64,000 bases of DNA from Candidatus Aenigmatarchaeota archaeon (GTDB lineage Archaea > Aenigmatarchaeota > Aenigmatarchaeia > GW2011-AR5), in the NCBI GenBank assembly GCA_043799385.1, contig JAZDNV010000001.1:96361-160360 (forward strand), given 5' to 3'. This document shows, in pieces, positions 38,269-62,762 of this stretch. A program made the translations under genes and the position numbers. Within the stretch, counting starts at the first letter, position 1; each line of letters opens with the position of its first letter. The notes under the pieces are model-generated. The model saw nothing but the letters and a program-made list of their open reading frames with translations. It was not told the origin of the DNA and did not search any database.

Positions 38269-39189
38269 ATGATAGACGTGTTGGTTTTCACCTACAACAA
38301 CGAGGACATAATTGAACGCTGCCTAAAAAGCATAAAGAATCAAAGCTATAAAAAATTCTCCTGCATGGTCATAGACGATGCATCAACGGACGGCACGGTA
38401 GAATTAGTGAAAAAAAAGTATCCGTGGGTCAATGTATACAAAAAAGAAAAAAACACAGGCCCGACTGAAGGAAGGAATATCGGAATAGAAAAGACTAAAA
38501 ATAAGTATATAGCAATGCTCGATAGCGACGTTGAATTGAGCAAAGATTGGTTAAAGAATCAAGTCGCGCTCATAAAATCAGACAAAGACATAGGGATAGT
38601 TGGGTCAAAGCTGCTACTTCCAAACGGAAATATAAATTCAGCAGGCGGTTCTATAACGAGGCTTGGTTTTGGGTTTGACAAGACAACGGATTCAAAAAAA
38701 CAGGAGCAGGTCATTTACGTCTGCAGCGCCGCATGGATGATGAGGCGGTCGATAATAGAAAAGATAGGTTTTTTCGACGAGCGATTCTTTTATCCGCACG
38801 AGGATACCGACTACTGCTGGCGAGCATGCATCGCAGGGTTCAAGGTTGTATACAATCCTTTTACAGTTGCTTACCATCTCAGCGGAGGCACGATAAAAAA
38901 GATGAGCAAACGGGTTGCTTACAATGCTTCAAAGAACAGGATAAGGTCACTGTTAAAAAATTATGAACCAAAAAACATACTGAAATACATGCCGTTGCAT
39001 ATCGCATTAGTAATCTTGGACATACCATTGAAGAACAATCGAATTGCCAAAATTAAAGGGTTGCTATGGAATCTAACAAATATCATGGATACGATAAAAA
39101 GAAGAAAGGACGTGCAGAAAACAAGAAAGGTTAGCGATAAAGAATTGATGGTTTTGTTTTCCAAAAAATGGATAAATGAGAAGGTGTGA
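38269..39189 (+). CDS. GT2 glycosyltransferase
   Basis: VLVFTYNNEDII, VIDDASTDGT; DxD at MLDSDVE; 306 aa. Confidence 0.7.
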   Translation: MIDVLVFTYNNEDIIERCLKSIKNQSYKKFSCMVIDDASTDGTVELVKKKYPWVNVYKKEKNTGPTEGRNIGIEKTKNKYIAMLDSDVELSKDWLKNQVALIKSDKDIGIVGSKLLLPNGNINSAGGSITRLGFGFDKTTDSKKQEQVIYVCSAAWMMRRSIIEKIGFFDERFFYPHEDTDYCWRACIAGFKVVYNPFTVAYHLSGGTIKKMSKRVAYNASKNRIRSLLKNYEPKNILKYMPLHIALVILDIPLKNNRIAKIKGLLWNLTNIMDTIKRRKDVQKTRKVSDKELMVLFSKKWINEKV

Positions 39190-40610
39190 AGATGAGAGTT
39201 CTGGTAACGGATTTGCCGTGGAAGGGAAAGAAATACGCTGGCCGCGCCGGCATGCGATGGGCGCATACGTCTGACAAACAACCGGTAATAAGTTTCAGGC
39301 CATTCCCGTTTTATCTGGCGTGCACTTCCGCAGTGCTGGAAAGAGCTGGTCATGATGTATTGGTCGTAGATGCGCTGGCTGAAAATTTATCAGAGGATGA
39401 ATATTTCAAGCGCATCGCAGGGTTTTCTCCTGATTTCATAGTCGCAGAAATACATACGCCGTCATACAATAACGACCGAACTTACATGAAAAAATTAAAA
39501 GAACTCACCGGCGCGAAGATGATATTCGCAGGCCCGCAGCCGACGGCATTGCCAGAGCAGGTCCTGAAAGAGAATAAAGGAGTAGCAGACTTTGCCCTTG
39601 TTTCTGAGTATGAATTTCTGGCGTTGATGGCAGTAGAAGGCAAAGCAAAAAAAGGCATAGTCAAGTCAAAAAAGCTTGTTGATATCAATGACATACCGTG
39701 GCCAGCCAGGCACATGTTTAAGATGAATCTTTACAACGAGGTCTTCTGCAGGAACTATCCGAATATACAGATGATGGCTTCACGGGGCTGCCCGTTGCGT
39801 TGCAGCTACTGCAACATATTCACGATGAACAACTTCCAGAGGATTCATAGAAAACGAGACGTTGGTAACGTTGCGGATGAGATGCAGTTTTGTATTGATG
39901 AATACAAGCCGAAGGAGCTCTATCTGGATGACGATAATATTGATATATCGCCGCAATGGCTAAGCGACCTTCTCGATGAGAAAATAAAAAGAATCGGCGA
40001 CTTTCCATTCACCTGCATGGGTCATGTGAATGTAAAAGAAGAGCTCTTGGAGAAGATGAAAAAAGCCGGTTGTGTTGGCATAAAGCTTGGAATAGAATCT
40101 TCGAATAATTATGTATTGAAAAGGCTTGGCAAAGGCATGACAAACGAGATGGCTGTGCGTACAATAAAGAAGTGCAAGGAACTTGGCATAAAGACGCATC
40201 TCACGTTCTGCATAGGCCTGCCGGGTGACACAGAGCAGACGGTAAGTGATACGATAGATTTTGCAATGAAATATGGCGACAGCTTTCAGATAAGCACAGC
40301 CGCGCCGTTTCCAGCAACACCACTATGGGACGAGGCGGTGAAAAACAATTGGATAAAATTCAAATCCTGGGACAGTTTTGATGGCATGAAGGACGCGATA
40401 ATAAACTATCCGAACCTTTCAAATAAATGCCTGCAGAACATCGCAATGAATGCTCAGGCGATGAGTTACAGGAAGGCGGTGAAGAGCGGTGAATGGAAAA
40501 AATACGTTAAAATGATATTCCAGGAAAGAGGGATAACCGGAGTAACAAAGATGGCTTTCATCCGCGGGCCGGGTATGATCTACAATCTTTTGAAATCTAA
40601 ACGCCGATGA
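39186..40610 (+). CDS. cobalamin (B12)-binding radical SAM enzyme (class B rSAM) - paralog A
   Basis: N-terminal B12-binding Rossmann-like domain; radical SAM Cys triad CPLRCSYC; TIM-barrel rSAM core; ATGA overlap with the upstream GT2. Confidence 0.75.
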   Translation: MKMRVLVTDLPWKGKKYAGRAGMRWAHTSDKQPVISFRPFPFYLACTSAVLERAGHDVLVVDALAENLSEDEYFKRIAGFSPDFIVAEIHTPSYNNDRTYMKKLKELTGAKMIFAGPQPTALPEQVLKENKGVADFALVSEYEFLALMAVEGKAKKGIVKSKKLVDINDIPWPARHMFKMNLYNEVFCRNYPNIQMMASRGCPLRCSYCNIFTMNNFQRIHRKRDVGNVADEMQFCIDEYKPKELYLDDDNIDISPQWLSDLLDEKIKRIGDFPFTCMGHVNVKEELLEKMKKAGCVGIKLGIESSNNYVLKRLGKGMTNEMAVRTIKKCKELGIKTHLTFCIGLPGDTEQTVSDTIDFAMKYGDSFQISTAAPFPATPLWDEAVKNNWIKFKSWDSFDGMKDAIINYPNLSNKCLQNIAMNAQAMSYRKAVKSGEWKKYVKMIFQERGITGVTKMAFIRGPGMIYNLLKSKRR

Positions 40611-41730
40611 GCTTCTTCAGGAGCTTTAACTGATTATTTTTTGTGAACCGGTTTGCATGTTTTTTTGCGTTCAAAGATAACCTTGAATACGACTTTTTTT
40701 CATCAAGCTTTAGGATATTTTTAATCCACTCTTCTATGTCGAATATATCTCTTACTACAAGTCCACCATTGCCTATTGCTTCTGGTATGCCCCCGCGATT
40801 GCTGCCAACGCATGGTATGCCGCTCACTCCAGCTTCCAGCGCGACACGACCGAATGGTTCTGGCCATATTGATGGTACTAAAAGCATTTTTGTTTTGCCA
40901 TATACATCGCGCATATCACTAACATAAGAAATATAATCTACATTCTGATGTTTCTTGAATTTCGCTGCCCATTTCTTGTTTCCACCGACAACCAAGAATC
41001 TTTTATCTGGAAGCGAATCTACTATATCCAAGGCGATTGACGCGCCTTTGATTGTAGTCGGGTTTATGAATGTCGTATAACTGCCGGATTTTGTTTTGAA
41101 CATGTCAATATTTAAAATAGGGTAAAAAACCTTCGAGTCAAGTCCATAGAATCTCCTAAGCATCCCTGCCATGTACGTGCTGTTTGATAATATCATGTCA
41201 GCGTTCCCCAGAGATTTTTCCTGCCATGATATGTATTTTTTGATGAACGGATGCTGTAATTTATACTGTAACGGAGAGCAACTCAGGCATTTTCTGTCAC
41301 ATGAATCAGGGCTCACTGTCCTGAAAGAGAACGGGCAGAAATGGTCATAGTTGTGCAGGAATACAACTGATTTTATGCCAGATTTTTTCGCAACTTCTAT
41401 TGTTGATGGCGTGTATTCCAATTGGGTAAAAACTAAATCAGGTTTTATTTCTTTTACCTTTTTTTCAAGATGCCTCTTCCAGATGAGGTTTGCAGAGTAT
41501 TGCCTAATTATGCTACGGTTGAATATCGGGATATTCTTGAAGACAAAGCTTCTTGGCTTAGGTAGCAGGTTTAGCGATGATTTCTTCATCTGCCCTACGT
41601 ACAATACATATATTTCATGCTCATTGGATAACTCATTCATCAATTCCTCTAAAAAAACCTCAGCGCCGCCTATATGCGGGTAAAAGTTCTCTGCTGAAAA
41701 TAGTATCTTCATTTCACTCAGCCCTTTCAA
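40597..41730 (-). CDS. glycosyltransferase family 4
   Basis: GT4 C-terminal motif (PSIWPEPFGRVALEAGVSGIPCV); start may be the internal MKILFSAENF (41712). Confidence 0.7.
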   Translation of the reverse strand: MKGLSEMKILFSAENFYPHIGGAEVFLEELMNELSNEHEIYVLYVGQMKKSSLNLLPKPRSFVFKNIPIFNRSIIRQYSANLIWKRHLEKKVKEIKPDLVFTQLEYTPSTIEVAKKSGIKSVVFLHNYDHFCPFSFRTVSPDSCDRKCLSCSPLQYKLQHPFIKKYISWQEKSLGNADMILSNSTYMAGMLRRFYGLDSKVFYPILNIDMFKTKSGSYTTFINPTTIKGASIALDIVDSLPDKRFLVVGGNKKWAAKFKKHQNVDYISYVSDMRDVYGKTKMLLVPSIWPEPFGRVALEAGVSGIPCVGSNRGGIPEAIGNGGLVVRDIFDIEEWIKNILKLDEKKSYSRLSLNAKKHANRFTKNNQLKLLKKLIGV

Positions 41731-43123
41731 GTGTAAAAAATTTCAGGAATCTTAAACCACTTAAAGCTATTTTAGTCACCATAAGTGGATTGTTAAAGAA
41801 ACGCCTTAACCATAACTTCATCTCAAAATACCGAATTTTACTCCTCGCTTCGCTGAAAACCATTTTGAATTCTTCATAATCCACATCATCATCAAGAAGA
41901 ATCGGTTTTCCCAGATGATATTCGGATAGCGTACGCCAGTCCATATGGTTCGATACACGACCCCTCTTCAATGCTATGTCCCACATCTCCGTGCCAGGCA
42001 ACGGCGACATTATTGAAAGCCAGGCAATTTCAGCGTCCTGCTTTCTGAGGAAGTTTATGAATTCCACGGTTTTCCTCATGTCATCTATCGTTTCTGTCGG
42101 ACTTCCGATTATCAATGCCGCGCCTACGCGTATGCCATATTTTTTACAAAGAATCACAGACTTTTTGTTGTTGTCTAATGTTACCGATTCTCTTTTTAGA
42201 TACTTAATCATACGGTCGCTGCCTGACTCAAAGCCGAAGTTGAAGAATATCACACCCAATTCATTCGCGATTCTGCACAGTTCATCGTCAACTAAATTGG
42301 CACGAGCCATTGCATTGAATTTTATCTTTCCTAAAATCCCCCGTTTCTTCAGGTCATTTGCTAATTCCTTCAGTCTTTCCTTATTGACAAGAAACAGGTC
42401 ATCCCATATGGAGATGAACTCAACCTTATAATTCCTGTAAAGGTACTCGATTTCGTCTGCTACTCTCCTGACAGAATGCATTCGGTATTTTTTCCAGAAC
42501 AGGCTCGTGGAGCAGAATCGGCAGTGGTAAGGGCAGCCGCGACTTGTCATGATATTCGCCATTCTCACAGCTTTTCTTGTTTCCAGTATGCATTTGTTTT
42601 TGAATCTTTTGCTGAAAAAGCTGCGGTCTATTATCGGTATCCTGTCCAATGACATTATCATTTCCCTCGGCTTTGTTATGACGAGCTTGTTTTTATCGGA
42701 GAATACCAATCCATTTATTTTCTTCAGGTCACTTTTTTTGGTTTTATTGCTTCTGAATGCCTTCATCAGATCAAACATGGTTTCTTCACCTTCGCCTATG
42801 ACCCCGATATCAAAGACAGGATCGAATGATTCAGGCAGGGTAGATATGTGAACGCCACCGATAAGAATCACGACATCCTTGAATTCCTTTTTTATGTTCT
42901 TTGCAAGTTCGCATGCCTTTCCATAATACATGGTCATCGCTGATAAACCGATTATGTTAGGTTTCTCTTTTCTGAGTTCATCTATGATATTCTCATATTT
43001 TGCATCTATTATTACAGTATTGTCGAAGTTTCCATACTCTTTAAGATACGTTGCTATTGAGCCTAGACCTATAGGCGGGTCTGCACCGCTGCTTCTGTAC
43101 ATAGGAACAAGTGCTAACTTCAT
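41714..43123 (-). CDS. cobalamin-binding radical SAM enzyme - paralog B
   Basis: B12-binding N-domain (IIGLSAMT...VILIGGVHIS), CPYHCRFCS radical SAM motif; 469 aa. Confidence 0.75.
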   Translation of the reverse strand: MKLALVPMYRSSGADPPIGLGSIATYLKEYGNFDNTVIIDAKYENIIDELRKEKPNIIGLSAMTMYYGKACELAKNIKKEFKDVVILIGGVHISTLPESFDPVFDIGVIGEGEETMFDLMKAFRSNKTKKSDLKKINGLVFSDKNKLVITKPREMIMSLDRIPIIDRSFFSKRFKNKCILETRKAVRMANIMTSRGCPYHCRFCSTSLFWKKYRMHSVRRVADEIEYLYRNYKVEFISIWDDLFLVNKERLKELANDLKKRGILGKIKFNAMARANLVDDELCRIANELGVIFFNFGFESGSDRMIKYLKRESVTLDNNKKSVILCKKYGIRVGAALIIGSPTETIDDMRKTVEFINFLRKQDAEIAWLSIMSPLPGTEMWDIALKRGRVSNHMDWRTLSEYHLGKPILLDDDVDYEEFKMVFSEARSKIRYFEMKLWLRRFFNNPLMVTKIALSGLRFLKFFTLERAE

Positions 43124-43755
43124 TTTCTCGCCCTCACAATCAGGCCAGCTGCTATTGTAGGAAACCTTGTTGCCACTCCGGAAACAAATTTATAAAATAC
43201 TGATTTATCGTCCTCGCCCAACCATGGCAGTATGTAAAGATAGCTGCCTGCGATGACATCTACCTTGAACTTATTTTTCTTTAGTAAAAATCTCAAATCA
43301 CCAGATGAAAATATATGGACGTGGCCTAGATTCTCCAAAGATGATATATATGTTGGCGTCTGGCCGAAAAACAATAACCTTAATCTCGTGTTTATTGACG
43401 CAACGTTTGGTGTCGTGAACACAAAATAACCGCCTTTCTTCAATATGCGGTGGCACTCACTCAGGAAAAAATTCACGTCAGCTATATGCTCAATTACGTC
43501 ACGTGCAAACAGTATATCAAAGTAATTACTTTTGTATGGAAAACCTTTTGTTATATCATGCTGCCTGACTTTCAATCCATTTTTCTTCGCGATTTTTACA
43601 GAATCTGAGATATCGACTCCGTAATAGTCTGCCTCTGGAAAAAACTTGGCCCAGCGGCCGACATGGCATCCGATATCAAGAACCTTCTTTCCTTTACTCA
43701 CCGGCAAGAACTCTTTGATTTTCTTGGCATGCGTCGGAACGAATGTTATTTTCAT
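43120..43755 (-). CDS. class I SAM-dependent methyltransferase
   Basis: VLDIGCHVGRW motif I, 211 aa; 4-nt overlap with downstream rSAM B. Confidence 0.65.
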   Translation of the reverse strand: MKITFVPTHAKKIKEFLPVSKGKKVLDIGCHVGRWAKFFPEADYYGVDISDSVKIAKKNGLKVRQHDITKGFPYKSNYFDILFARDVIEHIADVNFFLSECHRILKKGGYFVFTTPNVASINTRLRLLFFGQTPTYISSLENLGHVHIFSSGDLRFLLKKNKFKVDVIAGSYLYILPWLGEDDKSVFYKFVSGVATRFPTIAAGLIVRARK

Positions 43756-45602
43756 TTCAACACCTGTTCTACAAGTTTTGCAAACCTTTCGGCTGATTTT
43801 CCATCAGTTTTGTATATACTCTTAGTTATTAAGCGCCTTCTCGCCGATTCCAGCCTTTTTCGCAATGCTTTATTGTTTATAATATTTTTAATCGATGGCG
43901 CTATGTCTTTTTCCATGTAAGCGCCGACGGCTGCTCCGCTTGAAACGAACGGAAATTTATCAGGCTGACCAGATAGATTCACTATCAGAACTGGCTTATC
44001 GAATAGCATGGCTTCAAGCGCAGTCGTCGAATAATAAGTAATCGCTAAACCGCACGAATTGAACAATTCATATAAGTCAACGCACTTGACAATTATAGGC
44101 TTGATGTCATATTCGTTTGCGATTTTTTTATGCAACTCGTCATTTTCATCCGGATGCAATTTTACAATAAGCTGTAGATCTGGAAATTCTTCAATCGCTT
44201 TGAAAACCCCATGCAACAACGCCTCGTTCTCCTCCTTTGATACAGGTTGAGTTGTCAGGACGACTATAGTCTTGTCTTTCGGAATGCCGAACTTTTCATA
44301 CACGCTGTTCTTGTTGTAATACATTTTCTTTAGGAATAGTTCATCGTATCTCGGGTCGCCGGTAATCTCTATTCTTTTTCTTTCAACACCGCGTCTTGCC
44401 CAGAAATCCTTTGTCATCTGCCCAAAGGCAGCTATTTTGCTAGCATAAACATTTCCGTCTTTCGGATAACCAACATCTATTACACCGTGGTCTGAAAGAA
44501 GTACAGGAATATGCCTGCTTGATACCATATCATACAGTTTTGCCCACCTGCCGATCTCATCATAATTTATCAGAAGATCTGGTTTTCCCTCTTCGATGAA
44601 ATTCTTTAGCGCTTCGATATGCTTTACCAGTTCTGGAAAATCATGCTTTAGATAGAATTCGAACAGCAATATAGATGAGTCATACAAGTCTGTATTTTTG
44701 TACGATAACATATTTCTGAATTTTTCATCCTTTTTTAATTCAGACAGCGACTCCTTGAATGCGCTCTCCATGATTTTTGTTTTTGCAGCGACATCTTTTG
44801 TAATATAACTTGATACATGCTCTGTACGGCCTATGGACGATTTTGATTCGTCTATGCTGAGAAATACAACATCATTCTTTATCTTGTTTATCCACGGCGT
44901 TATCACAGCGAACCTGAAGTTTGAGCTTATTGGAATTACAATCAGCTTTCCGACTTTATCGAAATGCAACCTCTTACACGGCTTTAGTCGTTTTGTTCCC
45001 CAAGGTTGGACAAATCGCATTGCAAATGGAATCAGCATACGTCTGATTTTGTTAAACCAAGAGGCCTTTCCCGTTACCATGGCACCTCTAGACTTTGCTA
45101 TACTATAGGTTATGCTTCCCATCTGGCTGCCTGTGTCGAATATGTGAATATGTTCAGGCTTTTCTCTGTTTATTATCTTTTCAGCAAGCGATATGTCTGA
45201 AAATATCCTTGAGAAGTAGTTCCAGGAATCAGCTCGAACGATTTCCCATAGCGAACAACCGTCGTGTGTCACAGCATTCTTGAATTTATCATATTTTTCA
45301 ATGTTGATGATGAATTTCATCGCATCTTCTTCAGCGATCTTGTAGAAATCAGCGGATATGTAGTCATTATGATTTCTGCACGCTATCCCAGCTCTGTCCA
45401 ATTTTTCATTTGTTTCATGATCTAACGCGACTATCACAAGTTCTTTTTTCTTGGACAGTTTTTTGATGGTCGGTATTACTTTTAGGTTGAATGTCAAGTA
45501 AGAGTGCAAACCCGCAATGGAGTTGTAAATGCTTGAAACAAATTTTATTGTTGTCGGGATTCTTCCCCTTCTGGAATCTAAGATTATAAGCGTCTTTTCC
45601 AT
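43752..45602 (-). CDS. large GT-B-like transferase, CDP-glycerol glycerophosphotransferase (TagB/TagF) or capsule-synthesis family-like
   Basis: 616 aa; C-terminal region LQLIVKLHPDEND...ITYYSTTALEAM resembles the KxHP region of TagF/Glyphos_transf-type enzymes; family assignment tentative. Confidence 0.4.
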   Translation of the reverse strand: MEKTLIILDSRRGRIPTTIKFVSSIYNSIAGLHSYLTFNLKVIPTIKKLSKKKELVIVALDHETNEKLDRAGIACRNHNDYISADFYKIAEEDAMKFIINIEKYDKFKNAVTHDGCSLWEIVRADSWNYFSRIFSDISLAEKIINREKPEHIHIFDTGSQMGSITYSIAKSRGAMVTGKASWFNKIRRMLIPFAMRFVQPWGTKRLKPCKRLHFDKVGKLIVIPISSNFRFAVITPWINKIKNDVVFLSIDESKSSIGRTEHVSSYITKDVAAKTKIMESAFKESLSELKKDEKFRNMLSYKNTDLYDSSILLFEFYLKHDFPELVKHIEALKNFIEEGKPDLLINYDEIGRWAKLYDMVSSRHIPVLLSDHGVIDVGYPKDGNVYASKIAAFGQMTKDFWARRGVERKRIEITGDPRYDELFLKKMYYNKNSVYEKFGIPKDKTIVVLTTQPVSKEENEALLHGVFKAIEEFPDLQLIVKLHPDENDELHKKIANEYDIKPIIVKCVDLYELFNSCGLAITYYSTTALEAMLFDKPVLIVNLSGQPDKFPFVSSGAAVGAYMEKDIAPSIKNIINNKALRKRLESARRRLITKSIYKTDGKSAERFAKLVEQVLK

Positions 45603-45624
45603 CGAATCACTTTATTTAAAAGAA

Positions 45625-46659: not shown

Positions 46660-46674
46660 CTTTATGAAATCCTT

Positions 46675-47379
46675 TTAAACATTATTTTGTTTATTTTTCA
46701 AAACCGATTCTATGAATTCAAAATCCAATGCCGTATCTATATCCAGCGAGCTCGTGTGGTCCATTATGATAGCGCTGCAGTCTTTGGTTATAAGAACCCT
46801 CCTTTTCAGCAAAGCACTGGTCTTCGTTATATAAACTGCGCCGTTTGGCTGGTAAACTTTTGGCAGTTGCTGGCGCTCAAGGCAGAAATAATCTGTTTTC
46901 GATTTAACGAATGGATACAATCGTTTATTCTTGTATTCGACCAGCCAGAAAGGCGGGAATTCCGCTTCCTTAACGCTCATCAGCGACTCGGATTTAGTCT
47001 TTAGTATCGTTTTTATTCCAAGCGAGATGTGTTCTGCCTTTCTCAAAGGCGAGGTAGGCTGCAGCGTAACTACGTAATCTGGATAATACCCGTTTTTTTC
47101 CAGCTGTTTTACTGCATGTATTATCACAGGCGGCGTGTGCGTCGTATCTTTTGCCAGATGAGACGGTCGCATGAACGGAACTTCTGCGCCATAGCTTTTT
47201 GATACTTCTGCAATCTCCCTGCTGTCTGTAGTGACTATAACGCGGTCAAGCTCTTTGCACTTCAAAGCGCCTTCTATCGAATAGGCTATCAACGGTTTGC
47301 CGTTTAATGGTCTGATATTCTTGCCCGGTAGCCCTTTCGACCCGCCGCGTGCAAGAATCACGCCGAGAAATTTCTTCAT
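46675..47379 (-). CDS. CMP-sugar synthetase (acylneuraminate/pseudaminate cytidylyltransferase family)
   Basis: ILARGGSKGLPGKNIRPLNGKPLIAY matches the NeuA/PseF/LegF P-loop-like signature; 234 aa. Confidence 0.7.
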   Translation of the reverse strand: MKKFLGVILARGGSKGLPGKNIRPLNGKPLIAYSIEGALKCKELDRVIVTTDSREIAEVSKSYGAEVPFMRPSHLAKDTTHTPPVIIHAVKQLEKNGYYPDYVVTLQPTSPLRKAEHISLGIKTILKTKSESLMSVKEAEFPPFWLVEYKNKRLYPFVKSKTDYFCLERQQLPKVYQPNGAVYITKTSALLKRRVLITKDCSAIIMDHTSSLDIDTALDFEFIESVLKNKQNNV

Positions 47380-47417
47380 AATTATCGATTACGGGCTAAG
47401 CTTAAAAATCTATAGAA

Positions 47418-48431: not shown

Positions 48432-48464
48432 TTTCCGATATAAGAAGCAAAAATTTAAATATGG

Positions 48465-55292: not shown

Positions 55293-55831
55293 TTGTCCGC
55301 ATATATTATACAGTTCATGAAAAGTTCAAAATATTTTGCACGTATTTTATTTCTGTCAAATCCAGCCTCTGCGAGAATATCCATTATTTCAGAGCGGTAG
55401 TACGTTTTTTTATGCTCTTCTGCACCTTTTTTTGAGACAAGTTGCAAACTACCTAGAAATTGTATGATGAAATTTGCGATAGGCGTTGGCGTCGTGATTA
55501 TCAATCGGCCGCCGCTTCTCAAGACCCTGCGGCATTCCTTCATTACATCCACTATGGTGTCTTCTTCTATATGCTCAAAGACTGCAAGCATTGTTATGCA
55601 GTCAAAATAGTCTTGTTTGAACGGCAACCCCTTTCTTATGTCCCCTTTCATACACCTTGAATCTCTTGGCAGGTCAATGTCGATGCCATACTTGTCTTTG
55701 AAATCGACATGCTTCAGCAAATAACCGGAGCCGCAGCCCAAATCTAATATCCTTCCCCTGGATTCTGGCAGATATTTGTTCGTCTGACTTATTCTCATTG
55801 ATCTAAGAAACGGTTCTAACAACTCGCTCAT
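55289..55831 (-). CDS. class I SAM-dependent methyltransferase
   Basis: ILDLGCGSGYLL motif I; 180 aa. Confidence 0.65.
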   Translation of the reverse strand: MSELLEPFLRSMRISQTNKYLPESRGRILDLGCGSGYLLKHVDFKDKYGIDIDLPRDSRCMKGDIRKGLPFKQDYFDCITMLAVFEHIEEDTIVDVMKECRRVLRSGGRLIITTPTPIANFIIQFLGSLQLVSKKGAEEHKKTYYRSEIMDILAEAGFDRNKIRAKYFELFMNCIIYADK

Positions 55832-55833
55832 AG

Positions 55834-56955
55834 TTATTCAAATTTTACTCTAAATAACTTCACTTCCCCTCCCCAGTTATTTACGAACTCAAAGTTTTCG
55901 AGCCCCTGGCCGTTAAAGAAGTACATTTTAGTGAACAACGAATTCTCGAGTTCAGGCGGTATGTAAATCAGCAGTTGCCTGTCAGGCGTCAGCCATAACA
56001 GGCCCTTGATTTCAGAGTCAGGGTAAGTCTTTACAGCTCCCATGCCATCCTTTGTGACATAGAATATTTTTTCAACTGACAGGAATTGGCTGCCCTGCTG
56101 AAGATAAGGCTTTATTGTCCCATTTATTTCATATAAGACGAATGACTGCTGTTCTGCCATCGGATACGTGTAAGCTATCGCGTTCTGTGCAACTATAGGC
56201 TTTGCTTGGCTCAGGCCAAGCATGAGATAATAGTATTTCTTACCCTTTTCGGCAGGTTCCCATGTTGTGAAGTACGACCACCATACGCTCTTGCTTATTA
56301 GGTCAGATGAAGCTATGTAGTAAAGCTCATCACAACCCAGTTTCTTATACTCTTTCAAAATATCCAGCGCCAACGTCTCGTTTCCCGTGAGCAATGTTGC
56401 GGCTATGTCCTGTATTCGTGCTGTCGTGACAGTGCCGTTCGAAAACATCATAATACGGTTTATGCCGTTGTCGTATTTCTTTATCACCATACCCGATTCG
56501 TCGCTGCTGGTGTTTCTTATCAGCAGAGCGTTCTGCGAAGCGCCATCGAAAACGACCGCTCGCTGCGCGATTCCTGTTATGAAATGCCCTGGGTCCCAGT
56601 ACGTCGCAATAACTGCGCAATCCTTTGTGTTATTTCTGATCCAGTTCAATGCGTTGAACCAGTTGTCGGATAAAACGGTGCCCTGTGATTTTGCTACGTA
56701 CAACCCCGGTGAAAAGTAAAATGAGTATGTAATGGAAAATATCATGAACATCAATAAAGTAAGGTATATCTCCCTCTTTTCGATGAATTTTGTCGCGTAC
56801 AATGCCCATGAAATAATTGCAATCACGAACATTACTGCAAACCACTCAAGAATTAAGACGGATGCGTTAAGCACAAAGATGAGTATCAATGACAGCAGCG
56901 ACAACCCGACCAATGAAAGTATTCTTTTATCCATATCAATCCTCAAGTTTTTCAT
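55834..56955 (-). CDS. aglB: AglB/STT3 oligosaccharyltransferase C-terminal portion (last TM helices + WWDYG-like motif + periplasmic domain)
   Basis: ATYWDPGHFITGIAQRAVVFDGASQN aligns with the archaeal STT3 signature WWDYG[YH][WF]I...GQRA..DGG; three N-terminal TM helices then soluble domain; 373 aa. Confidence 0.55.
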   Translation of the reverse strand: MKNLRIDMDKRILSLVGLSLLSLILIFVLNASVLILEWFAVMFVIAIISWALYATKFIEKREIYLTLLMFMIFSITYSFYFSPGLYVAKSQGTVLSDNWFNALNWIRNNTKDCAVIATYWDPGHFITGIAQRAVVFDGASQNALLIRNTSSDESGMVIKKYDNGINRIMMFSNGTVTTARIQDIAATLLTGNETLALDILKEYKKLGCDELYYIASSDLISKSVWWSYFTTWEPAEKGKKYYYLMLGLSQAKPIVAQNAIAYTYPMAEQQSFVLYEINGTIKPYLQQGSQFLSVEKIFYVTKDGMGAVKTYPDSEIKGLLWLTPDRQLLIYIPPELENSLFTKMYFFNGQGLENFEFVNNWGGEVKLFRVKFE

Positions 56956-58132
56956 TTTCAGTAATAACCCTCAGCAGTTTTGATAGCAATATTGCTGAAC
57001 CAATCGCCATTGGCGCTGAGAACAGAATCGAAAATCTTACCGCGATTATGGTCGCCAGCAACGGGCCTATGAACCATATCGAAAGTAGAATAATCGTGTC
57101 CAAGTGCTGTTTTTTCCTGTAGTAAGAGTAGAACAAATATATCAGACAATAGAGCATGAGGAAGAATGGTGATATAATAATCGCTATCCCGCCGATGGCG
57201 CTCGTTCTTTGTATTATATTTCTTATGTCGCCGGATTCCTGCATCTCTGCGACCGAAACGTAAACGTTAGGGAATTCGCCGGCTTCGCTTTTGATGTCAC
57301 CGAACGTGAACGGTCCCTGCACGGTTGAAACGATGTGACTCACCCCCAATATAGGTACGGTCATGCAGAAATACGTGATAGCCATTATGACGAACATCAA
57401 TAAAATACATTTTGAATTGTGAATGAATTCTTTCCTTGACTGCAAATAATTCGTTATTAACTTCAGAACTAAGAAGCCTGTTATCAGCCATACTACGTAC
57501 CACCAACCTGCCCATGAATATGCCCAGATCCCCAGGAATATTCCGGTAAGAACAGAATACATAACTGCTTTTTTATCAAGAACTTTTTTCAGGTCTATGT
57601 ATTTGTATGTAATCAGGAATAACGCGATTACGATTAATGGCAGTAAAAGTGTGAAAGCATCCGAGTCTGGATCGCCGCCCAGCGTTCGGCTCATTACGGC
57701 AACGTCAAAGACGATGAAGAAAGCGGCTATGATGCCTGCTCGCTTGTCGTAGAGAATCTTTCCGATAAAATACATTGGTATTGCCATCAGCGAAGCCAGC
57801 AATGCCGGAAGATATATCAGGTACTGCCACAGCTCAAGGTTAGGCATGAAAGATTTGAACAACATGTAGCCCCATGCGCCAAGGTATTGGTAGAAGAACG
57901 GATAATTGGTTGGAACTGGATGGCCGTATGGTGCCTGGTCAAGATAGTCGTAATTTGGCATCAAGCCGTTGTTGTCGATTATCATGTTCATCTGCTTCAT
58001 AAACGCGTATGAATCTATGTTGCGCAGGTACGGCCATCGGTAATCTATCGTCCTCACGTACATGCCCAGGAATATTATGAGCACTACAATGATTATTGCC
58101 CAATACCTTACCAAGAAATTTTTCAAATCCAC
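56936..58132 (-). CDS. aglB: AglB/STT3 oligosaccharyltransferase N-terminal transmembrane portion
   Basis: 398 aa, about 10 TM helices; first external loop YVRTIDYRWPYLRNIDSYAFMKQ resembles the STT3 EL1 acidic DxD/DSYYH region; ends in a different frame 20 nt inside the start of 55834..56955. Confidence 0.5.
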   Translation of the reverse strand: MDLKNFLVRYWAIIIVVLIIFLGMYVRTIDYRWPYLRNIDSYAFMKQMNMIIDNNGLMPNYDYLDQAPYGHPVPTNYPFFYQYLGAWGYMLFKSFMPNLELWQYLIYLPALLASLMAIPMYFIGKILYDKRAGIIAAFFIVFDVAVMSRTLGGDPDSDAFTLLLPLIVIALFLITYKYIDLKKVLDKKAVMYSVLTGIFLGIWAYSWAGWWYVVWLITGFLVLKLITNYLQSRKEFIHNSKCILLMFVIMAITYFCMTVPILGVSHIVSTVQGPFTFGDIKSEAGEFPNVYVSVAEMQESGDIRNIIQRTSAIGGIAIIISPFFLMLYCLIYLFYSYYRKKQHLDTIILLSIWFIGPLLATIIAVRFSILFSAPMAIGSAILLSKLLRVITENEKLED

Positions 58133-58136: not shown

Positions 58137-59288
58137 TCACTTCGGATTCAGATTGAATGTATTTATGTAAAGGTCTTCATTGCCATGCCTTACTGTAAAT
58201 AGAATGAACAAAACTATAAAAACTGTATAAATCAGATTTATGTGCATTTTGTACTTACCTTCACTAAGCTTTGCTACCATCATGAATGCAGGAAACAGGA
58301 CTAAAACGAATCTTGGTATGCCGAACAGCAGAGACGTAGATATGGGAAGAATAAGACTCAGCACAGAATAAATACCGTACTCTTTTTTGATGTGCCTTAA
58401 TGACAGCAAGGACAGTGCGATGAATGCTGCAGCTACGGCTATGTCAAAAAAGTAATAGATTGTCCCGCCAAAAGTCTTTGATGTTATTCCCATGTAGAAC
58501 GTGTTTATGAATGCTACCCATGGCAATGCAAGCTCCCGTGCAAACCCCTGCTGGGCCTTGAACATCATGAACGCATCGCCTATGGAAAAATAATGGTATG
58601 CCATTATCGTAAGTATGCCTAAAGGTATCAGTAATATGAAAAGAACGTTCGGACTTATCCTGAATTTCTTCTCGCGAAGGTAGATGTACAATATCGGTAA
58701 AAGCAGGATTACGCCTTGCGATCTCGTCAGTGATGCAAAAAACCCGGCGATTCCCGAATGCATGTATTTCCCCTCTTGTGCAAACCAGAAGCAGGCCAAT
58801 GACAAGAACAGAAACAACGACTCTGTGTACGCTGCCGTGAAGAAATAGGCAGTCGGGAATAGCAAAAGATAGAAAACGGTCTTATACGCCATTTTACCAT
58901 TCATCTCCTTCTTGACTAGCAGATAAAGCATTGTCACCGCAAGGAATGAGAATATGTTTGATATGAGAAAGGCGGCAATATCATAACCAAGAAAACCGAT
59001 TGCCTTTATCATCAGCGGATAGAGAGGATACCAAGCGTAGTTGCCCATACCTTCATTGAAGTTGGGATTATAGCCGTTTTTTGCTATATCCAGGTACGCT
59101 CCTGCGTCTGACTGCATCCACGGATTAAGGAACAGACTATCACTGCGGATCTGACGGTGCGTGAGTTCGATTGGTATAAGCTGGCTGAAAATACCGACAA
59201 CAAGCAAAACAATCTTGATGAGCAGAAAGATTGCCACCACTCTTTTATAGAACCCATCTTTCCACAATGTTCTGAATTTATTCATCAT
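58137..59288 (-). CDS. PIG-V/Gpi18-like (GT76-like, DUF2029-type) membrane mannosyltransferase
   Basis: Polytopic 383 aa; motif MQSDAGAYLDIAKNGY resembles the conserved WDAEHYLxIAxxGY loop of GPI mannosyltransferase 2-type GT-C enzymes. Confidence 0.45.
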   Translation of the reverse strand: MMNKFRTLWKDGFYKRVVAIFLLIKIVLLVVGIFSQLIPIELTHRQIRSDSLFLNPWMQSDAGAYLDIAKNGYNPNFNEGMGNYAWYPLYPLMIKAIGFLGYDIAAFLISNIFSFLAVTMLYLLVKKEMNGKMAYKTVFYLLLFPTAYFFTAAYTESLFLFLSLACFWFAQEGKYMHSGIAGFFASLTRSQGVILLLPILYIYLREKKFRISPNVLFILLIPLGILTIMAYHYFSIGDAFMMFKAQQGFARELALPWVAFINTFYMGITSKTFGGTIYYFFDIAVAAAFIALSLLSLRHIKKEYGIYSVLSLILPISTSLLFGIPRFVLVLFPAFMMVAKLSEGKYKMHINLIYTVFIVLFILFTVRHGNEDLYINTFNLNPK

Positions 59289-59341: not shown

Positions 59342-59995
59342 ATGAAGTACAGGGAGCAATGGGATGACCATTGGAAAAAGCTTGACAAGTCATTCTTTGG
59401 AAGACTAACGGAATTCCATAGAAAGATTATAATATCCAAGGCAGTCAGCTACTACATGGACAGGTATTTTCCAGACAAAGGCACATTCGTTGAGTGCGGT
59501 TCTGGAACTTCGCAGACATCCATAAAAATAAACAAAAGAAAAAGAAGACTAATTGCATTGGACATATCGTCTCAGGCGCTCAACGAAGCCAGAAACGTCA
59601 AAAAGATAGACCACTTCATCAAGGCTGATATATTTCGCCTGCCGTTCAAAGACGATTGCATAGACGGCATATGGAACCTTGGCGTTATGGAACACTTTAG
59701 CAAATCTGAAATAAGCCATGTACTCAGCGAGTTCTACCGAGTAATGAAAGACGGTTCGCATATAATCCTTTTCTGGCCGCCCATGCACGGCTCGTCGCAG
59801 ATAGCGCTGAGGCCGGTTGAAAAATTCTTCAACATGCTCAAAAAGGAAAAGTTTCAGTTCTTTCCAGGCGAGATAAGCAAACCGAAATCAAGGAGCCATG
59901 CAAAGAGCTTGTTGGGTTCAAAGTTCAAGGTGGTTGACATACACTTTGACCGCAGAGACATGTTCACTCATTATGTTGTTGTTTGCAGAAAATAG
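59342..59995 (+). CDS. class I SAM-dependent methyltransferase
   Basis: FVECGSGTSQTS motif I, LGVMEHF motif; 217 aa. Confidence 0.6.
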   Translation: MKYREQWDDHWKKLDKSFFGRLTEFHRKIIISKAVSYYMDRYFPDKGTFVECGSGTSQTSIKINKRKRRLIALDISSQALNEARNVKKIDHFIKADIFRLPFKDDCIDGIWNLGVMEHFSKSEISHVLSEFYRVMKDGSHIILFWPPMHGSSQIALRPVEKFFNMLKKEKFQFFPGEISKPKSRSHAKSLLGSKFKVVDIHFDRRDMFTHYVVVCRK

Positions 59996-60691
59996 CTAGA
60001 ATTTCTTTCTTATGCTGTGAACGTACAGGTTCATGACATGCCTTATATATCTTGAAATTTCTTTTGGTGTCATTATCTTGCTTTTGCCTGCTTTTCTGTT
60101 TATGAAGATGAAAGGGACTTCTATGAAATTTTTGTACTTGCCCTTGACCATTATTTCCAGGCATATCTTGCAACTATCAGGATTGATGCTCACGCCATCT
60201 ATAACGCTTTTTTTAACAAGGAAGAAACCTGACATCGGATCTTTTATTTTTGCTATAGGCTTTACCAGAAGTATCGCTGATTTTGATATCAATCTCCTGA
60301 GCTTTGTCCACTTCTCATCCGCTCCTCCGCCTGGTATATACCTGCTGGCTACAACAACATCATAATCCTTTATCTTTTCAATCATTCTTCTCAACGTTTC
60401 CGGTGGGTGGCTCAGGTCCGCGTCCATCACGCCGACTATATCGGTTTCTGCTGCCTTGAAGCCATCGAGAATCGCCGAGCCAAGACCGGATTTGTTCTTG
60501 CGGTGAAGCACGTTTACACGTCTGCATGTCTTCTTTAATTTTTCTGCAATTTCACCAGTTCCGTCCGGAGAATTGTCATCTACTACCAATATTCTGATGG
60601 CTTTTATCTTCAGCAAATCTTTGACAAGTATTGGAAGGTTCTTGCTCTCATTGTACGTTGGCACGATTATCGTTATCATTTCAATCAACAA
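59996..60691 (-). CDS. GT2 glycosyltransferase, dolichyl-phosphate hexose synthase-like
   Basis: [33 protein letters not shown] (DxD/SH motif) typical of DPM1/AglD-like synthases; 231 aa. Confidence 0.75.
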
Positions 60692-61376
60692 ACCTGTATT
60701 TTATTATTGCATACAACGCCTTCACGCCGTCCTTCCAGTTTATCTTTTTTCCCTCGCTGAAATTTCTAGGATTAAAGGATATCGGAACCTCGTATATCCT
60801 GTACCCGCGTTTAAGAATCTTTGCTGTAATCTCAGGCTCTATTTCAAATCTGTTGGATTTGAGCGTTATATTCTTTACAACGTCTTTTTTGAAGACCTTG
60901 TAGCACGTCTCCATGTCTGTTATGTTTTTTCCGTACACAAGATTCATCGCCAAGTTCAAAAGCTTATTTCCCATGTAGTGCGAAGGGATACTTGTTTTAC
61001 CCTTTCCAAAGAGTTTCAGCTTCTTGCCAACCAGCCTTGAGCCATAGACCACGTCTTTGCCGTTCATTATAGGATCGAGCAATTTCTTGTAGTCTTGCGG
61101 GTCGTATTCAAGGTCGGCATCCTGTATCAATATTACATCGCCCGTGGCTTTTGCCAGGCCCGTGCGCACGGCACGGCCCTTGCCCATGTTTTTTTCATGG
61201 TAGAACACCTTACACCCTTTCAGCTTTTTCAGGACGTTCCTAGTTCCGTCCGTGGAGAAATCATCGACGATTATAATCTCTTTACCAATCTTCAGCTCGA
61301 CCCTTTTTATCCTATCCACTATTTCCGCTATGGTTCTGTATTCGTTGTAGACCGGTATGATAATTGATAATTTCAT
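60681..61376 (-). CDS. GT2 glycosyltransferase, dolichyl-phosphate hexose synthase-like (paralog)
   Basis: [36 protein letters not shown]; 231 aa. Confidence 0.75.
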
Positions 61377-61379
61377 AAC

Positions 61380-62762
61380 TTATGCCAACCATCTGTATAT
61401 CCTTAAGAGCACGAATTTTAAATTCTCAAGGTTCTTTATCTCGGAGAGCATTTTCAGCATTATGTGCGGCCGCAGATAGAAGCGCAGGAACGCCTTTCTC
61501 CTCAGGTTCTTTAATTGCCTTTCACTTATTCCGTCAGGCGTCCACACTATCTTGTCAAGCGAGAATTTATCCCAGTCAAGTTTTTTTATCTTGCCCTGCC
61601 TGACAAGGTCGTTGTACGCTTCTGTCCCTGGGAACGGCTTATACGCAGAAAAGCCCGCTCTTTTTAGCGGAAGTTTGCAGGCAAAATCTATTGTTGCATT
61701 GATGTCAGCGATTGTCTCTCCGGGGTAGCCGAGAATGAAGAATCCAATTATCTCCAATCCTTGGTCGTGAATCATGTTGGCCTTTTTTTCTATGGTTTCG
61801 GACATAAGATTTTTTTTCATAAGTTTCCTTATCCTGTCGACTCCGGACTCGACGCCAACTGAAATGGAATAAAGGCCTGATTTCTTCATCAGTTTCAGCA
61901 GTTTCGGGTCCAGCGTGTCTATTCTCACCCCGTTCGGGCAGGCCCAGCTTACGCCAAGATTTTTCTTGATTAACTTTTTGCAGAACTCTTCGACGAATCT
62001 TCTGTTCATGGTGAAATTGTCGTCTTCTATATGAATCTCGCGAATGCCGTAATTCTTGACAAGGAACTCTATCTGGCTTATCGCGTAATCGACGCTGTGG
62101 CTGCGTATCTTCCTGCCGCTTATCACAGAGCCGCCGCAGTAGGTGCACTGAAACGGACAGCCGCGCGTTATGATTAGCGGCGCGGTAGGGTATTGCTTGC
62201 AGAACGCGCCGTGCGGAGCGAGCGGGTAGCTCTTGAGGTCATATAAATCCCAACTAGGATCGAAGTCGTCGAGATTTTCTGGAAAGACCCTATCTGTCTT
62301 ATGTATCTTATTTCCAGCGCGATATGCAATTCCAGGCACGCTCTTTATACGCTTCTCCATCGAATTTGCAATCATGCTGACGAATTTAGGAAAACTAATT
62401 TCAGCTTCTCCGATAAAAACATAATCAACATCTTTCAAGTAGTTCAGCGTTCCAGTTGGATCCAACGTTGCCTGAGGACCGCCAACGACAACGATTGCAT
62501 TCGGCATCAATTCTTTTACGATTCTGGAGAATTCTTTTACAGTGTTCAGGTCAACTGTGTAACACTGCAGACCGATTATATCGAATCTCTTGCCAACAAG
62601 ATAATCCTTGAACTTATCCGCCTTCCATCCATTCTTTATGCAGTCCAGTATTGTAACGTTATGCTCCCTCACCGTGCTTGAGATATAACCAAGGCCCAGT
62701 GGTGGCTGGACCTCATTCGTTATCTGGAAAGGCTTTACAAGCAGTATGTTTAGCTTTTTCAT
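61380..62762 (-). CDS. cobalamin-binding radical SAM enzyme - paralog D
   Basis: B12-binding domain (IIGLQCYT...VVVGGPQATL), radical SAM CPFQCTYCGG; 460 aa. Confidence 0.75.
   Translation of the reverse strand: MKKLNILLVKPFQITNEVQPPLGLGYISSTVREHNVTILDCIKNGWKADKFKDYLVGKRFDIIGLQCYTVDLNTVKEFSRIVKELMPNAIVVVGGPQATLDPTGTLNYLKDVDYVFIGEAEISFPKFVSMIANSMEKRIKSVPGIAYRAGNKIHKTDRVFPENLDDFDPSWDLYDLKSYPLAPHGAFCKQYPTAPLIITRGCPFQCTYCGGSVISGRKIRSHSVDYAISQIEFLVKNYGIREIHIEDDNFTMNRRFVEEFCKKLIKKNLGVSWACPNGVRIDTLDPKLLKLMKKSGLYSISVGVESGVDRIRKLMKKNLMSETIEKKANMIHDQGLEIIGFFILGYPGETIADINATIDFACKLPLKRAGFSAYKPFPGTEAYNDLVRQGKIKKLDWDKFSLDKIVWTPDGISERQLKNLRRKAFLRFYLRPHIMLKMLSEIKNLENLKFVLLRIYRWLA

Follow-up and report, generated by a model that had tools for sequence, protein, structure and literature searches.

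The window examined here is a 64-kb stretch of DNA (64,000 nucleotides (nt); positions 96,361 to 160,360 of contig JAZDNV010000001.1, GenBank assembly GCA_043799385.1) from a metagenome-assembled genome of an Aenigmatarchaeota species, a DPANN archaeon. It carries a glycosylation island of approximately 45 kb, extending from approximately 19.1 kb to the window end, in which nearly all genes are sugar-related. Among these are four open reading frames (ORFs) for radical S-adenosylmethionine (SAM) proteins with a B12-binding domain, here called rSAM_A to rSAM_D. That these are tailoring enzymes of a glycan pathway, coupled to the products of their neighbouring genes, can be stated with good confidence. 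The fuller reading, in which four distinct class-B radical SAM enzymes modify a surface glycan dependent on the oligosaccharyltransferase AglB in concert with neighbouring sugar enzymes, most likely by C-methylation, is considered probable, and methylation taken by itself as the specific reaction is offered tentatively.

The four genes and their cysteine motifs lie where a preliminary description of this DNA had placed them (all positions are those of the window):

39186-40610 (+), rSAM_A, B12-binding radical SAM protein of a DPANN-specific subfamily (PF02310, PF04055; CPLRCSYC)
41714-43123 (-), rSAM_B, B12-binding radical SAM protein (PF02310, PF04055; CPYHCRFC)
50866-52308 (-), rSAM_C, B12-binding radical SAM protein of a clade tied to nonulosonic-acid gene clusters (PF02310, PF04055; CPYKCIYC)
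61380-62762 (-), rSAM_D, B12-binding radical SAM protein of a subfamily common to DPANN and the candidate phyla radiation (CPR) (PF02310, PF04055; CPFQCTYC)

Their membership of the class-B radical SAM architecture is established. Presence of the B12-binding domain had been set beforehand as a test, and the Pfam model PF02310 (B12-binding) is found above its cutoff of 32.1 bits in all four, with scores of 38.2 (A), 60.5 (B), 87.1 (C) and 63.0 (D). The corresponding values for PF04055 (Radical_SAM) are 86, 77, 103 and 89 bits (cutoff 29.5). The CxxxCxxC motifs sit at residues 197-209 across the four proteins, which are the sole ORFs in the window with such a motif of the radical SAM type, and all four C-termini are basic and hydrophobic. 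By sequence, their closest solved structures are AprD4, MgmA, CysS, OxsB and TokK. An AlphaFold2 model of rSAM_C (predicted local distance difference test score (pLDDT) 91.3) has the class-B radical SAM fold with long C-terminal helices and matches TsrM, MgmA, AprD4, OxsB, CysS and TokK with E-values of 1e-17 to 1e-21 at 16-22% identity, the template modelling scores (TM-scores) being 0.61-0.69 for TsrM, MgmA, OxsB, CysS and TokK.

The description of the four as paralogs holds at the level of the superfamily; they are not recent paralogs, as their pairwise identity is 25-31%, and each has its own orthologs elsewhere. The proposal that one cassette of radical SAM, glycosyltransferase (GT) and sometimes methyltransferase (MT) genes has been repeated four times was not borne out, as these are instead four old, separate subfamilies with different partners. 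Likewise, rSAM_A, rSAM_B and rSAM_D each adjoin a GT gene as had been claimed, but rSAM_C does not, being flanked by genes for a Wzx-type flippase and a PseC-like aminotransferase. Four copies in one window is not an extreme number, since certain other loci (L044, L072, L076, L099, L113, L145, L001) include some with four to six B12-binding radical SAM genes in a row, beside genes for GT2 enzymes, MTs and SPASM proteins. Radical SAM genes of the SPASM type recur beside B12-binding radical SAM genes in many glycan loci, and one locus (L088, 1-1987) has an 822-aa fusion of a GT4 with a SPASM-type radical SAM protein, adjoining a second SPASM radical SAM gene and a radical SAM-GT2 fusion. Two proteins (P0403, P0476) consist of two complete B12-binding radical SAM units in tandem.

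The cutoff of a curated NCBIfam equivalog family is reached by none of the four. HpnJ and BchE give the strongest partial matches. Against HpnJ (TIGR03471, cutoff 577.6) they score 189 (A), 129 (B), 207 (C) and 180 bits (D), and against BchE (TIGR02026, cutoff 481) 104, 190, 211 and 167 bits, all below membership. Scores with the AprD4 family (NF033070) are 66-101 bits versus a cutoff of 500, and in A, C and D the match to this model begins only at approximately residues 124-159. The best scores against the P-methyltransferases PhpK (TIGR04479, cutoff 600; rSAM_C, 163 bits) and Sden_1168 (NF038361, cutoff 575; rSAM_D, 160 bits) and the KedN5-type C-methyltransferases (NF033712, cutoff 700; 85 bits) are also short of membership, and the MgmA and HpnR models are far below cutoff for all four. 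The same is true of TIGR04295, the short name of which, 'B12_rSAM_oligo', hints at a related context once seen by a curator. A number of homologs carry the JGI label 'anaerobic Mg-protoporphyrin IX monomethyl ester cyclase' (BchE); these labels appear to be over-annotations, and identification of the homologs as BchE was rejected on score and on context, an example being the Heliobacterium chlorum homolog, which lies among genes of the legionaminic/pseudaminic acid (Leg/Pse) type.

The partner of rSAM_A lies directly upstream of it:

38269-39189 (+), GT2 glycosyltransferase, partner of rSAM_A (Pfam Glycos_transf_2, 117 bits)

The stop codon of this gene overlaps the start of rSAM_A by 4 nt. 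The NCBI-named cluster representative (P0121) has 472 aa, two residues fewer than the rSAM_A ORF; translation from the third codon (39192) would account for this. Orthologs of rSAM_A, with 45-82% identity, are restricted to Aenigmarchaeota, Woesearchaeota and Nanoarchaeota, and the pairing with a GT2 is kept among them. In loci L085 and L086 an rSAM_A ortholog (63%) has an ortholog of the window GT2 (49.5%) directly upstream. An Aenigmarchaeota locus (L175) is syntenic with the window from approximately 29.5 to 40.6 kb and again has the GT2 directly before rSAM_A, and in a Woesearchaeota locus (L174) the order is AglB-GT2-GT4-GT4-GT2-rSAM_A-GT4, with a second pair of GT2 and B12-binding radical SAM genes nearby. 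In two fusion proteins (P0197, P0204) an A-like radical SAM protein carries a C-terminal GT2 half whose best match is the GT2 of the window at 38269-39189. Other relatives of rSAM_A are fused to a GT2 (P0214) or to a class I MT domain (P0174).

Inteins, with Hint, Intein_splicing and LAGLIDADG domains, were detected inside three homologs of rSAM_A (P0166, P0168, P0170) and one of rSAM_B (P0362). In L175 (11568-13075 and 974-1693, coordinates given jointly), one B12-binding radical SAM protein is divided between two ORFs, one with the Radical_SAM (329 aa) and one with the B12-binding part (185 aa), and an ORF for a LAGLIDADG endonuclease is inserted after the UDP-glucose dehydrogenase gene.

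On the opposite strand, rSAM_B lies between an MT gene and a GT4 gene:

43120-43755 (-), class I SAM methyltransferase upstream of rSAM_B (Pfam Methyltransf_23 and Methyltransf_11)
40597-41730 (-), GT4 glycosyltransferase downstream of rSAM_B (Pfam Glycos_transf_1 and Glyco_transf_4)

The GT4 gene overlaps rSAM_B by 17 nt, and the MT gene has 4-nt overlaps on both sides, one of them with rSAM_B. The best relative of rSAM_B has 59% identity and the next have 40-46%. A metagenome scan with the single rSAM_B protein gave no relatives, and an alignment-based scan gave only relatives with up to 38% identity, the genomic contexts seen being those of this more distant set. Fusions are frequent among the relatives of rSAM_B, combining the radical SAM protein with a GT2 and a GT4 (P0420), with a GT4 (P0442), with a preceding MT (P0417) or with a following MT (P0440). 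The gene orders GT2-rSAM_A and MT-rSAM_B-GT4 of the window are thus mirrored elsewhere as single polypeptides.

The fourth gene, rSAM_D, is followed after 3 nt by the first of two short GT2 genes, and a gene for a membrane protein is divergently oriented from it:

60681-61376 (-), short GT2 resembling AglJ and dolichyl-phosphate hexose transferases, partner of rSAM_D (NCBIfam AglJ 138 bits, cutoff 325; dolichyl-phosphate hexose transferase 79 bits)
59996-60691 (-), short GT2 of the polyprenyl-phosphate sugar synthase type (Pfam Glycos_transf_2 128 bits; partial NCBIfam matches to PgfS, AglJ and ArnC)
62816-63763 (+), flippase-like membrane protein, LPG_synthase_TM/TIGR00374 (Pfam 165 bits; TIGR00374 137 bits, above the cutoff of 43.2)

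Orthologs of rSAM_D have 55-81% identity in DPANN, and in Patescibacteria/CPR they match over the full length with 48-50%. In a Nanoarchaeota locus (L089) the ortholog (61%) adjoins an ortholog of the GT2 at 60681 (58.7%), and in locus L176 a homolog of rSAM_D lies between two GT2 genes of approximately 230 aa. A B12-binding radical SAM enzyme is thereby common to both ultra-small episymbiotic radiations, DPANN and CPR. The arrangement of rSAM_D, two GT2 genes and a flippase-like protein (with the deacetylase of the island) was also considered as an archaeal counterpart of hpnI-J-K-L, and this was rejected on the NCBIfam results: at E<=1e-5, no match to HpnI, HpnK or HpnL is given by the adjacent GT2s, by the membrane protein or by the deacetylase.

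The association between radical SAM and GT genes (in some cases with an MT) was proposed to be functional rather than accidental, and two independent lines agree with this: conserved pairs in the case of rSAM_A and rSAM_D, and Rosetta-stone fusions among relatives of rSAM_A and rSAM_B. As the pairs are conserved and are also found fused elsewhere, the arrangement is more than chance. The conservation of gene neighbourhood put forward as a check was accordingly found, with the pairs of GT2 and rSAM_A and of GT2 and rSAM_D recurring in other DPANN genomes and the clade of rSAM_C occurring with nonulosonic-acid genes.

The surroundings of rSAM_C differ from those of the other three, as its link is to a nucleotide-sugar pathway resembling that of pseudaminic acid and not to a GT. 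Its neighbours are as follows:

52339-53805 (-), Wzx-type oligosaccharide flippase (Pfam Polysacc_synt_3 and Polysacc_synt)
49601-50806 (-), PseC/LegC-like sugar aminotransferase (Pfam DegT_DnrJ_EryC1 372 bits; NCBIfam PseC 271 bits, cutoff 423)
48465-49487 (-), GFO/IDH/MocA sugar oxidoreductase (Pfam GFO_IDH_MocA; partial match to archaeal UDP-GlcNAc 3-dehydrogenase)
47418-48431 (-), polysaccharide deacetylase family protein (Pfam Polysacc_deac_1 69.5 bits)
46675-47379 (-), PseF-like CMP-sugar cytidylyltransferase (Pfam CTP_transf_3; NCBIfam PseF 184 bits, cutoff 206)
45625-46659 (-), PseB-like UDP-GlcNAc (UDP-N-acetylglucosamine) 4,6-dehydratase (Pfam Polysacc_synt_2 356 bits; NCBIfam PseB 340 bits, cutoff 408)
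43752-45602 (-), 616-aa GT-B-like protein, putative nonulosonic-acid transferase (C-terminal part: NCBIfam BFO_1060 family glycosyltransferase 93 bits and TIGR04396, both below cutoff; Pfam Glyphos_transf, GT52 and Capsule_synth)

The genes from 43752 to 50806 form a Pse-like sugar-nucleotide module beside rSAM_C, which the preliminary description had not remarked on and in which the C-terminus of the 616-aa protein resembles the Tannerella BFO_1060 family. The GT genes nearest to rSAM_C are a GT-C gene two genes upstream and that for the putative nonulosonic-acid transferase six genes downstream.

Homologs of rSAM_C with 37-48% identity are spread very widely over bacteria and archaea, most of them anaerobes, and they adjoin NeuB, CMP-transferase, PseB-type and DegT genes in Elusimicrobiota, Omnitrophota, Nanoarchaeota, Woesearchaeota, Desulfobacterota, Firmicutes and others; the cultured Heliobacterium chlorum DSM 3682 (L033) carries a homolog in such a context, and Desulfosporosinus and Hungatella are further cultured carriers. 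The scan with rSAM_C, taking one genome per species, covered 80 loci. The island around its closest relative (48%, L001) is similar: a gene for a 642-aa homolog of the 616-aa GT comes before this relative and a Wzx gene after it, three more B12-binding radical SAM genes are near, and a NeuB-cytidylyltransferase fusion is 10 kb away. In an Elusimicrobiota locus (L003) NeuB lies directly upstream of the rSAM_C homolog. Adjacency of rSAM_C and Wzx was found in L001, L016, L020 and L043, and homologs of the 616-aa GT lie next to or near C-type radical SAM genes in L001, L003, L016, L043 and L087. Pfam analysis of the 143 ORFs directly flanking these genes detected CTP_transf_3 (7), GT2 (7), MT (6), DegT (5), Wzx-type (5), GT4 (5) and NeuB (3) domains as well as 14 other radical SAM proteins (7 B12, 6 SPASM), while genes for hexapeptide acetyltransferases and 2-epimerases are likewise present around many rSAM_C loci. 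Of the ten closest homologs, seven are associated in this way with nonulosonic-acid genes. A rough neighbour-joining tree without support values gives a large contrast: a gene for NeuB, a CMP-transferase or a PseB-type enzyme lies up to six genes away in 26 of the 39 loci of the rSAM_C clade (27 if L001 is counted), against none of the 42 loci outside it.

Both rSAM_B and rSAM_C belong to a co-directional string of 16 ORFs on the minus strand (15 genes when AglB is taken as a single one), which spans 59288 to 40597, the gaps being -20 to +113 nt. They share it with AglB/STT3, which the preliminary description had not pointed out, and with GT-C proteins, Wzx, the PseB-, PseC- and PseF-like genes, MTs and the GT4. 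The first half of the string consists of a GT-C-like membrane protein, AglB/STT3 (two ORFs), an MT, the PMT_2 GT-C protein, Wzx, rSAM_C and the PseC-like aminotransferase. The second half continues with the GFO/IDH/MocA oxidoreductase, the deacetylase, the PseF-like and PseB-like proteins, the 616-aa GT-B-like protein, an MT, rSAM_B and the GT4. The members not yet listed, along with an MT gene on the opposite strand, are:

58137-59288 (-), multi-pass membrane protein, weakly GT-C-like (PIG-V/PMT_2; weak Pfam matches, below cutoff)
55834-58132 (-), AglB (STT3) oligosaccharyltransferase as two overlapping ORFs, 56936-58132 and 55834-56955 (Pfam STT3 106 bits on the N-terminal ORF)
55289-55831 (-), class I SAM methyltransferase (Pfam Methyltransf_11 and Methyltransf_23)
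53802-55292 (-), glycosyltransferase with GT-C fold (Pfam PMT_2 40.6 bits)
59342-59995 (+), class I SAM methyltransferase (Pfam Methyltransf_11 and Methyltransf_25)

The two AglB ORFs overlap by 20 nt, the first being the transmembrane part with a DPD motif and the second the soluble part with YWDPG, which resembles WWDYG. This split may be genuine, or it may reflect a pseudogene, a frameshift or an error of assembly. With this caveat, an STT3/AglB with both motifs in the same string as Wzx, GT-C, GT4 and rSAM_B and rSAM_C is what marks an AglB-dependent N-glycosylation cluster. The identification of the region as an archaeal protein-glycosylation island also stands, given the presence of AglB/STT3, three GT-C proteins, Wzx, GT2 and GT4 enzymes and sugar-nucleotide genes.

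The window is AT-rich, with a GC content of approximately 0.39-0.45, and has no compositional break at the island. Its first 19 kb contain housekeeping genes, including those for a topoisomerase, aminoacyl-tRNA synthetases and an RNA cyclase. No tRNA genes and no RNA families, cobalamin riboswitches included, were found in the window. At the beginning of the island, the genes between 19115 and 27401 resemble a complete route to NDP-heptose, comprising two NTP transferases, a GHMP kinase, a GmhA-like SIS isomerase and a GmhB-like HAD phosphatase. These are clustered with their own supply of sedoheptulose-7-phosphate, namely a ribulose-5-phosphate epimerase, a transaldolase and a split transketolase, the N-terminal half of which is fused to a nucleotidyltransferase (23160-24644). 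A related locus (L085) has two genes of the GT9 heptosyltransferase family. The island also has a 491-aa ORF with no Pfam match (31666-33141, +) and a 364-aa ORF with weak matches to six-hairpin glycosidases (35003-36097, -), both of which are kept in the syntenic Aenigmarchaeota locus L175. Among the housekeeping genes there is a 661-aa ORF (8210-10195, -) with no Pfam match that possesses the motifs CGSGCGSC and CNSQCTTC.

In the scheme that we propose, each of the four enzymes would act with its own set of neighbours. The soluble-type GT2 would serve as the partner of rSAM_A, and a class I MT and the GT4 as those of rSAM_B. rSAM_C would act in a CMP-sugar pathway with PseB-, PseC- and PseF-like steps, ending in the putative nonulosonic-acid transferase and the Wzx flippase, and rSAM_D would have as partners the flippase-like membrane protein and either one or both of the short GT2s, which are of the dolichyl-phosphate-sugar-synthase type. 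The [4Fe-4S] cluster would cleave SAM to give the 5'-deoxyadenosyl radical, which would take hydrogen from an unactivated carbon of the sugar just made or transferred by the partner enzyme, this sugar being lipid-linked for rSAM_A, rSAM_B and rSAM_D and nucleotide-linked or free for rSAM_C. Most likely, methylcobalamin would then give its methyl group, producing a C-methylated sugar or acyl substituent. That cobalamin is used, which substrate is acted on and what kind of reaction takes place are our inference, and C-methylation is preferred only because it is the commonest reaction of class-B enzymes, described as their dominant activity (PMC12931638, 2026 review), and because there are precedents with sugars and with CMP-linked substrates.

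A number of observations weigh against glycan tailoring, or against methyl transfer as its chemistry. As none of the four proteins reaches a curated cutoff, no function can be transferred to them by orthology, and no biochemistry or glycan structure was found in the literature for this organism or for the homologs. The B12-domain score of rSAM_A is marginal. AprD4 (6FD2) is the best sequence match in the PDB for rSAM_A (E-value 2e-12) and rSAM_C (4e-16), at 16-17% identity, and has the highest TM-score with the rSAM_C model (0.74/0.78). Since AprD4, an enzyme acting without cobalamin on a diol, is the best match for rSAM_C, methyl transfer is not assured. With regard to context, rSAM_C has no adjacent GT, and the Pse models are the top matches for the PseB-, PseC- and PseF-like genes with each score below the trusted cutoff. 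When 23 NeuB proteins of related loci were used as tblastn queries, no NeuB/PseI synthase came up in the window, although this gene may lie outside it, the source contig being 166 kb long. With no NeuB within 64 kb the module is incomplete in the window and, given these scores as well, its end product here is uncertain. In CPR, close relatives of rSAM_D have no GT beside them: those in Patescibacteria (approximately 50%; P0311, Portnoybacteria loci L091-L093) lie alone between an FtsA-like gene and the alanyl-tRNA synthetase gene with no sugar genes near. Of the more remote relatives met in the scans, approximately half likewise lack recognisable glycan neighbours. Lastly, the neighbour maps were made by crude ORF calling and BLAST against the window proteins, and the tree behind the clade counts is of the rough kind stated above.

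These points lend themselves to other explanations. The CPR distribution of rSAM_D, which is kept in CPR and DPANN and is unlinked to GTs in the former, would suit enzymes that methylate, cyclise or remodel isoprenoid chains, whether of host-scavenged membrane lipids or of the dolichol carrier, with the GTs building head groups on the same molecules. CPR and DPANN are regarded as unable to make their own lipids, and many distant relatives are present in Bathyarchaeia and methanogens away from glycan genes. Partial matches to the lipid-acting HpnR, a ladderane-lipid radical SAM protein and HpnJ point the same way, as do the basic, hydrophobic C-termini and the long C-terminal helices of the rSAM_C model, which recall the layout of GrsA/GrsB with a Rossmann domain, a TIM barrel and a C-terminal helix (PMC13459092). 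It is nonetheless unlikely, as covalent fusion to GT2 and GT4 catalytic domains points to sugar chemistry, the rSAM_C clade is embedded in soluble nucleotide-sugar operons (NeuB, CMP-transferase, aminotransferase) and the island has no isoprenoid or lipid biosynthesis gene. In a ring contraction like that of HpnJ or Cds, mostly by rSAM_D and also by rSAM_A, the sugar or amino sugar that the adjacent GT2 has placed on a lipid would not be methylated but would become a carbocyclic head group resembling a cyclitol or calditol. Among the NCBIfam partial matches HpnJ ranks first for both of these and second for rSAM_C, the hopanoid pathway of HpnI, HpnK and HpnJ offers a precedent with the same logic (PMC13459092), and in the window GT2s lie beside rSAM_D, a flippase-like membrane protein is divergent from it and a polysaccharide deacetylase is also present. 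However, the HpnJ scores are approximately one third of the cutoff and the BchE scores are similar, and the deacetylase sits in the Pse-like module, not beside rSAM_D. The absence of HpnI, HpnK and HpnL matches among these neighbours also speaks against the idea, which is rated as improbable; no known sequence feature separates ring-contracting from methylating class-B enzymes.

The similarity to AprD4 raises the question of whether the four proteins are cobalamin-independent radical dehydratases, deoxygenases or even epimerases, in which the Rossmann domain is structural only and which make deoxy or epimerised sugars together with neighbouring oxidoreductases. Apart from the structural matches and the marginal B12-domain score of rSAM_A, this would accord with the aminoglycoside sugar substrate of AprD4 and with the presence of short-chain dehydrogenase/reductase (SDR) and GFO/IDH/MocA reductases in the same operon. 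The strong B12-binding Pfam scores of rSAM_B, rSAM_C and rSAM_D (60-87 bits) make it a rather improbable account, the more so as the AprD4 family match is not only weak but omits the N-terminal domain in A, C and D, through which the BchE and HpnJ matches do run. Modification of a protein or peptide, such as an S-layer protein or a ribosomally synthesised and post-translationally modified peptide (RiPP), with the GTs as mere neighbours, or accidental co-location in a gene-dense, horizontally shaped island, is already disfavoured and appears highly improbable. There are partial matches to MgmA (TIGR04014), ApyD and TIGR03975, and MgmA (9CCB) is among the top structural matches, but the island showed neither precursor-peptide-like genes nor RiPP accessory genes, specific pairing with orthologous GTs is kept across DPANN orders, fusions with GTs and MTs exist, and the association of rSAM_C with nonulosonic-acid genes is clade-specific. 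Tailoring of the glycan, with C-methylation as the leading reaction, is the reading followed below.

The combination of radical SAM and GT genes in an archaeal glycan locus was put forward as undescribed, and none was found in the open-access literature searched, although absence there is not proof. The same literature gave no link of B12-domain radical SAM enzymes with surface glycans, N-glycosylation/AglB, nonulosonic acids or DPANN. Class-B radical SAM proteins are one of the largest pools of enzymes of unknown function, and those characterised act on antibiotics, cofactors, lipids and a few proteins. Looking beyond this island, the chances seem a little short of even that there is a large class of B12-domain radical SAM enzymes with obligate, often fused, GT partners which radically tailor surface glycans in anaerobes, DPANN and candidate phyla, including a clade that modifies nonulosonic acids of the pseudaminic or legionaminic type. 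The cell surfaces of DPANN and CPR mediate host attachment, and nonulosonic acids are important in host-microbe recognition. If the reading is true, prokaryotic glycan chemistry would be wider than known, especially in anaerobes and in ultra-small DPANN and CPR, and nonulosonic acids would gain a new route of modification. Sugars absent from current glycan databases would be expected, such as nonulosonic acids and hexoses that are C-alkylated, rearranged or carbocyclic, and genome-reduced DPANN cells would be spending scavenged cobalamin on surface decoration. The GT-radical SAM fusions and the cultured carrier Heliobacterium chlorum provide direct experimental entry points.

Among known systems, GenK, GenD1/GntE, Fms7 and MoeK5 act on sugars and Fom3 on a CMP-linked substrate. 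Like the four proteins of the window, GenK, GenD1, Fms7, MoeK5 and Fom3 have a B12-binding Rossmann domain and a radical SAM barrel, and their targets are unactivated carbons in sugars or in cytidylylated intermediates. They come from secondary-metabolite clusters of actinomycetes and similar organisms, whereas rSAM_A to rSAM_D come from clusters for primary surface glycans or N-glycans and nonulosonic acids, with GT2 or GT4 partners or fusions. No close relationship in sequence is seen: the models of KedN5, PhpK and Sden_1168 are all far below cutoff, and GenK, Fom3 and MoeK5 were compared by description. In the hopanoid side chain, the GT HpnI adds N-acetylglucosamine, HpnK deacetylates it and the putative radical SAM enzyme HpnJ contracts the ring (PMC13459092). 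The shared logic is that a lipid-bound sugar supplied by a GT is remodelled by an adjacent B12-domain radical SAM enzyme. The differences are the low HpnJ scores, the archaeal host, GT2s that resemble AglJ or dolichyl-phosphate-hexose synthases and a context in which no shc or other hopanoid gene was found in the window.

AprD4, the 1,2-diol dehydratase of apramycin synthesis, is the closest solved structure to rSAM_A and rSAM_C by sequence and acts on an amino sugar; it differs in its low identity and in lacking cobalamin, whereas rSAM_B, rSAM_C and rSAM_D have strong B12-domain scores. GrsA/GrsB, B12-domain ring synthases of glycerol dialkyl glycerol tetraethers, and the radical SAM calditol synthase Cds are archaeal, like the four proteins, and were compared with them by description. 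They were reportedly found by knockout in Sulfolobus and are said to act on the cores or head groups of these tetraethers. Cds is proposed to contract lipid-linked glucose. The proteins of the window differ from these in being embedded in AglB, Wzx and nucleotide-sugar operons and in having relatives fused to GTs. With the PseB/C/H/G/I/F and LegB/C/H/G/I/F pathways, rSAM_C shares its PseB-, PseC- and PseF-like neighbours, and its homologs lie in complete NeuB-containing clusters, the window itself differing in its lack of NeuB/PseI. We know of no radical SAM step in the described pseudaminic and legionaminic acid pathways. A 2026 review of class-B enzymes mentions neither 'polysaccharide' nor 'glycan' (PMC12931638). 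What is known, therefore, is the class-B enzymes and their tailoring of sugars in antibiotic pathways; what is new is that such enzymes have been recruited to the pathways of surface glycans and nonulosonic acids, where they are coupled to GTs or fused with them.

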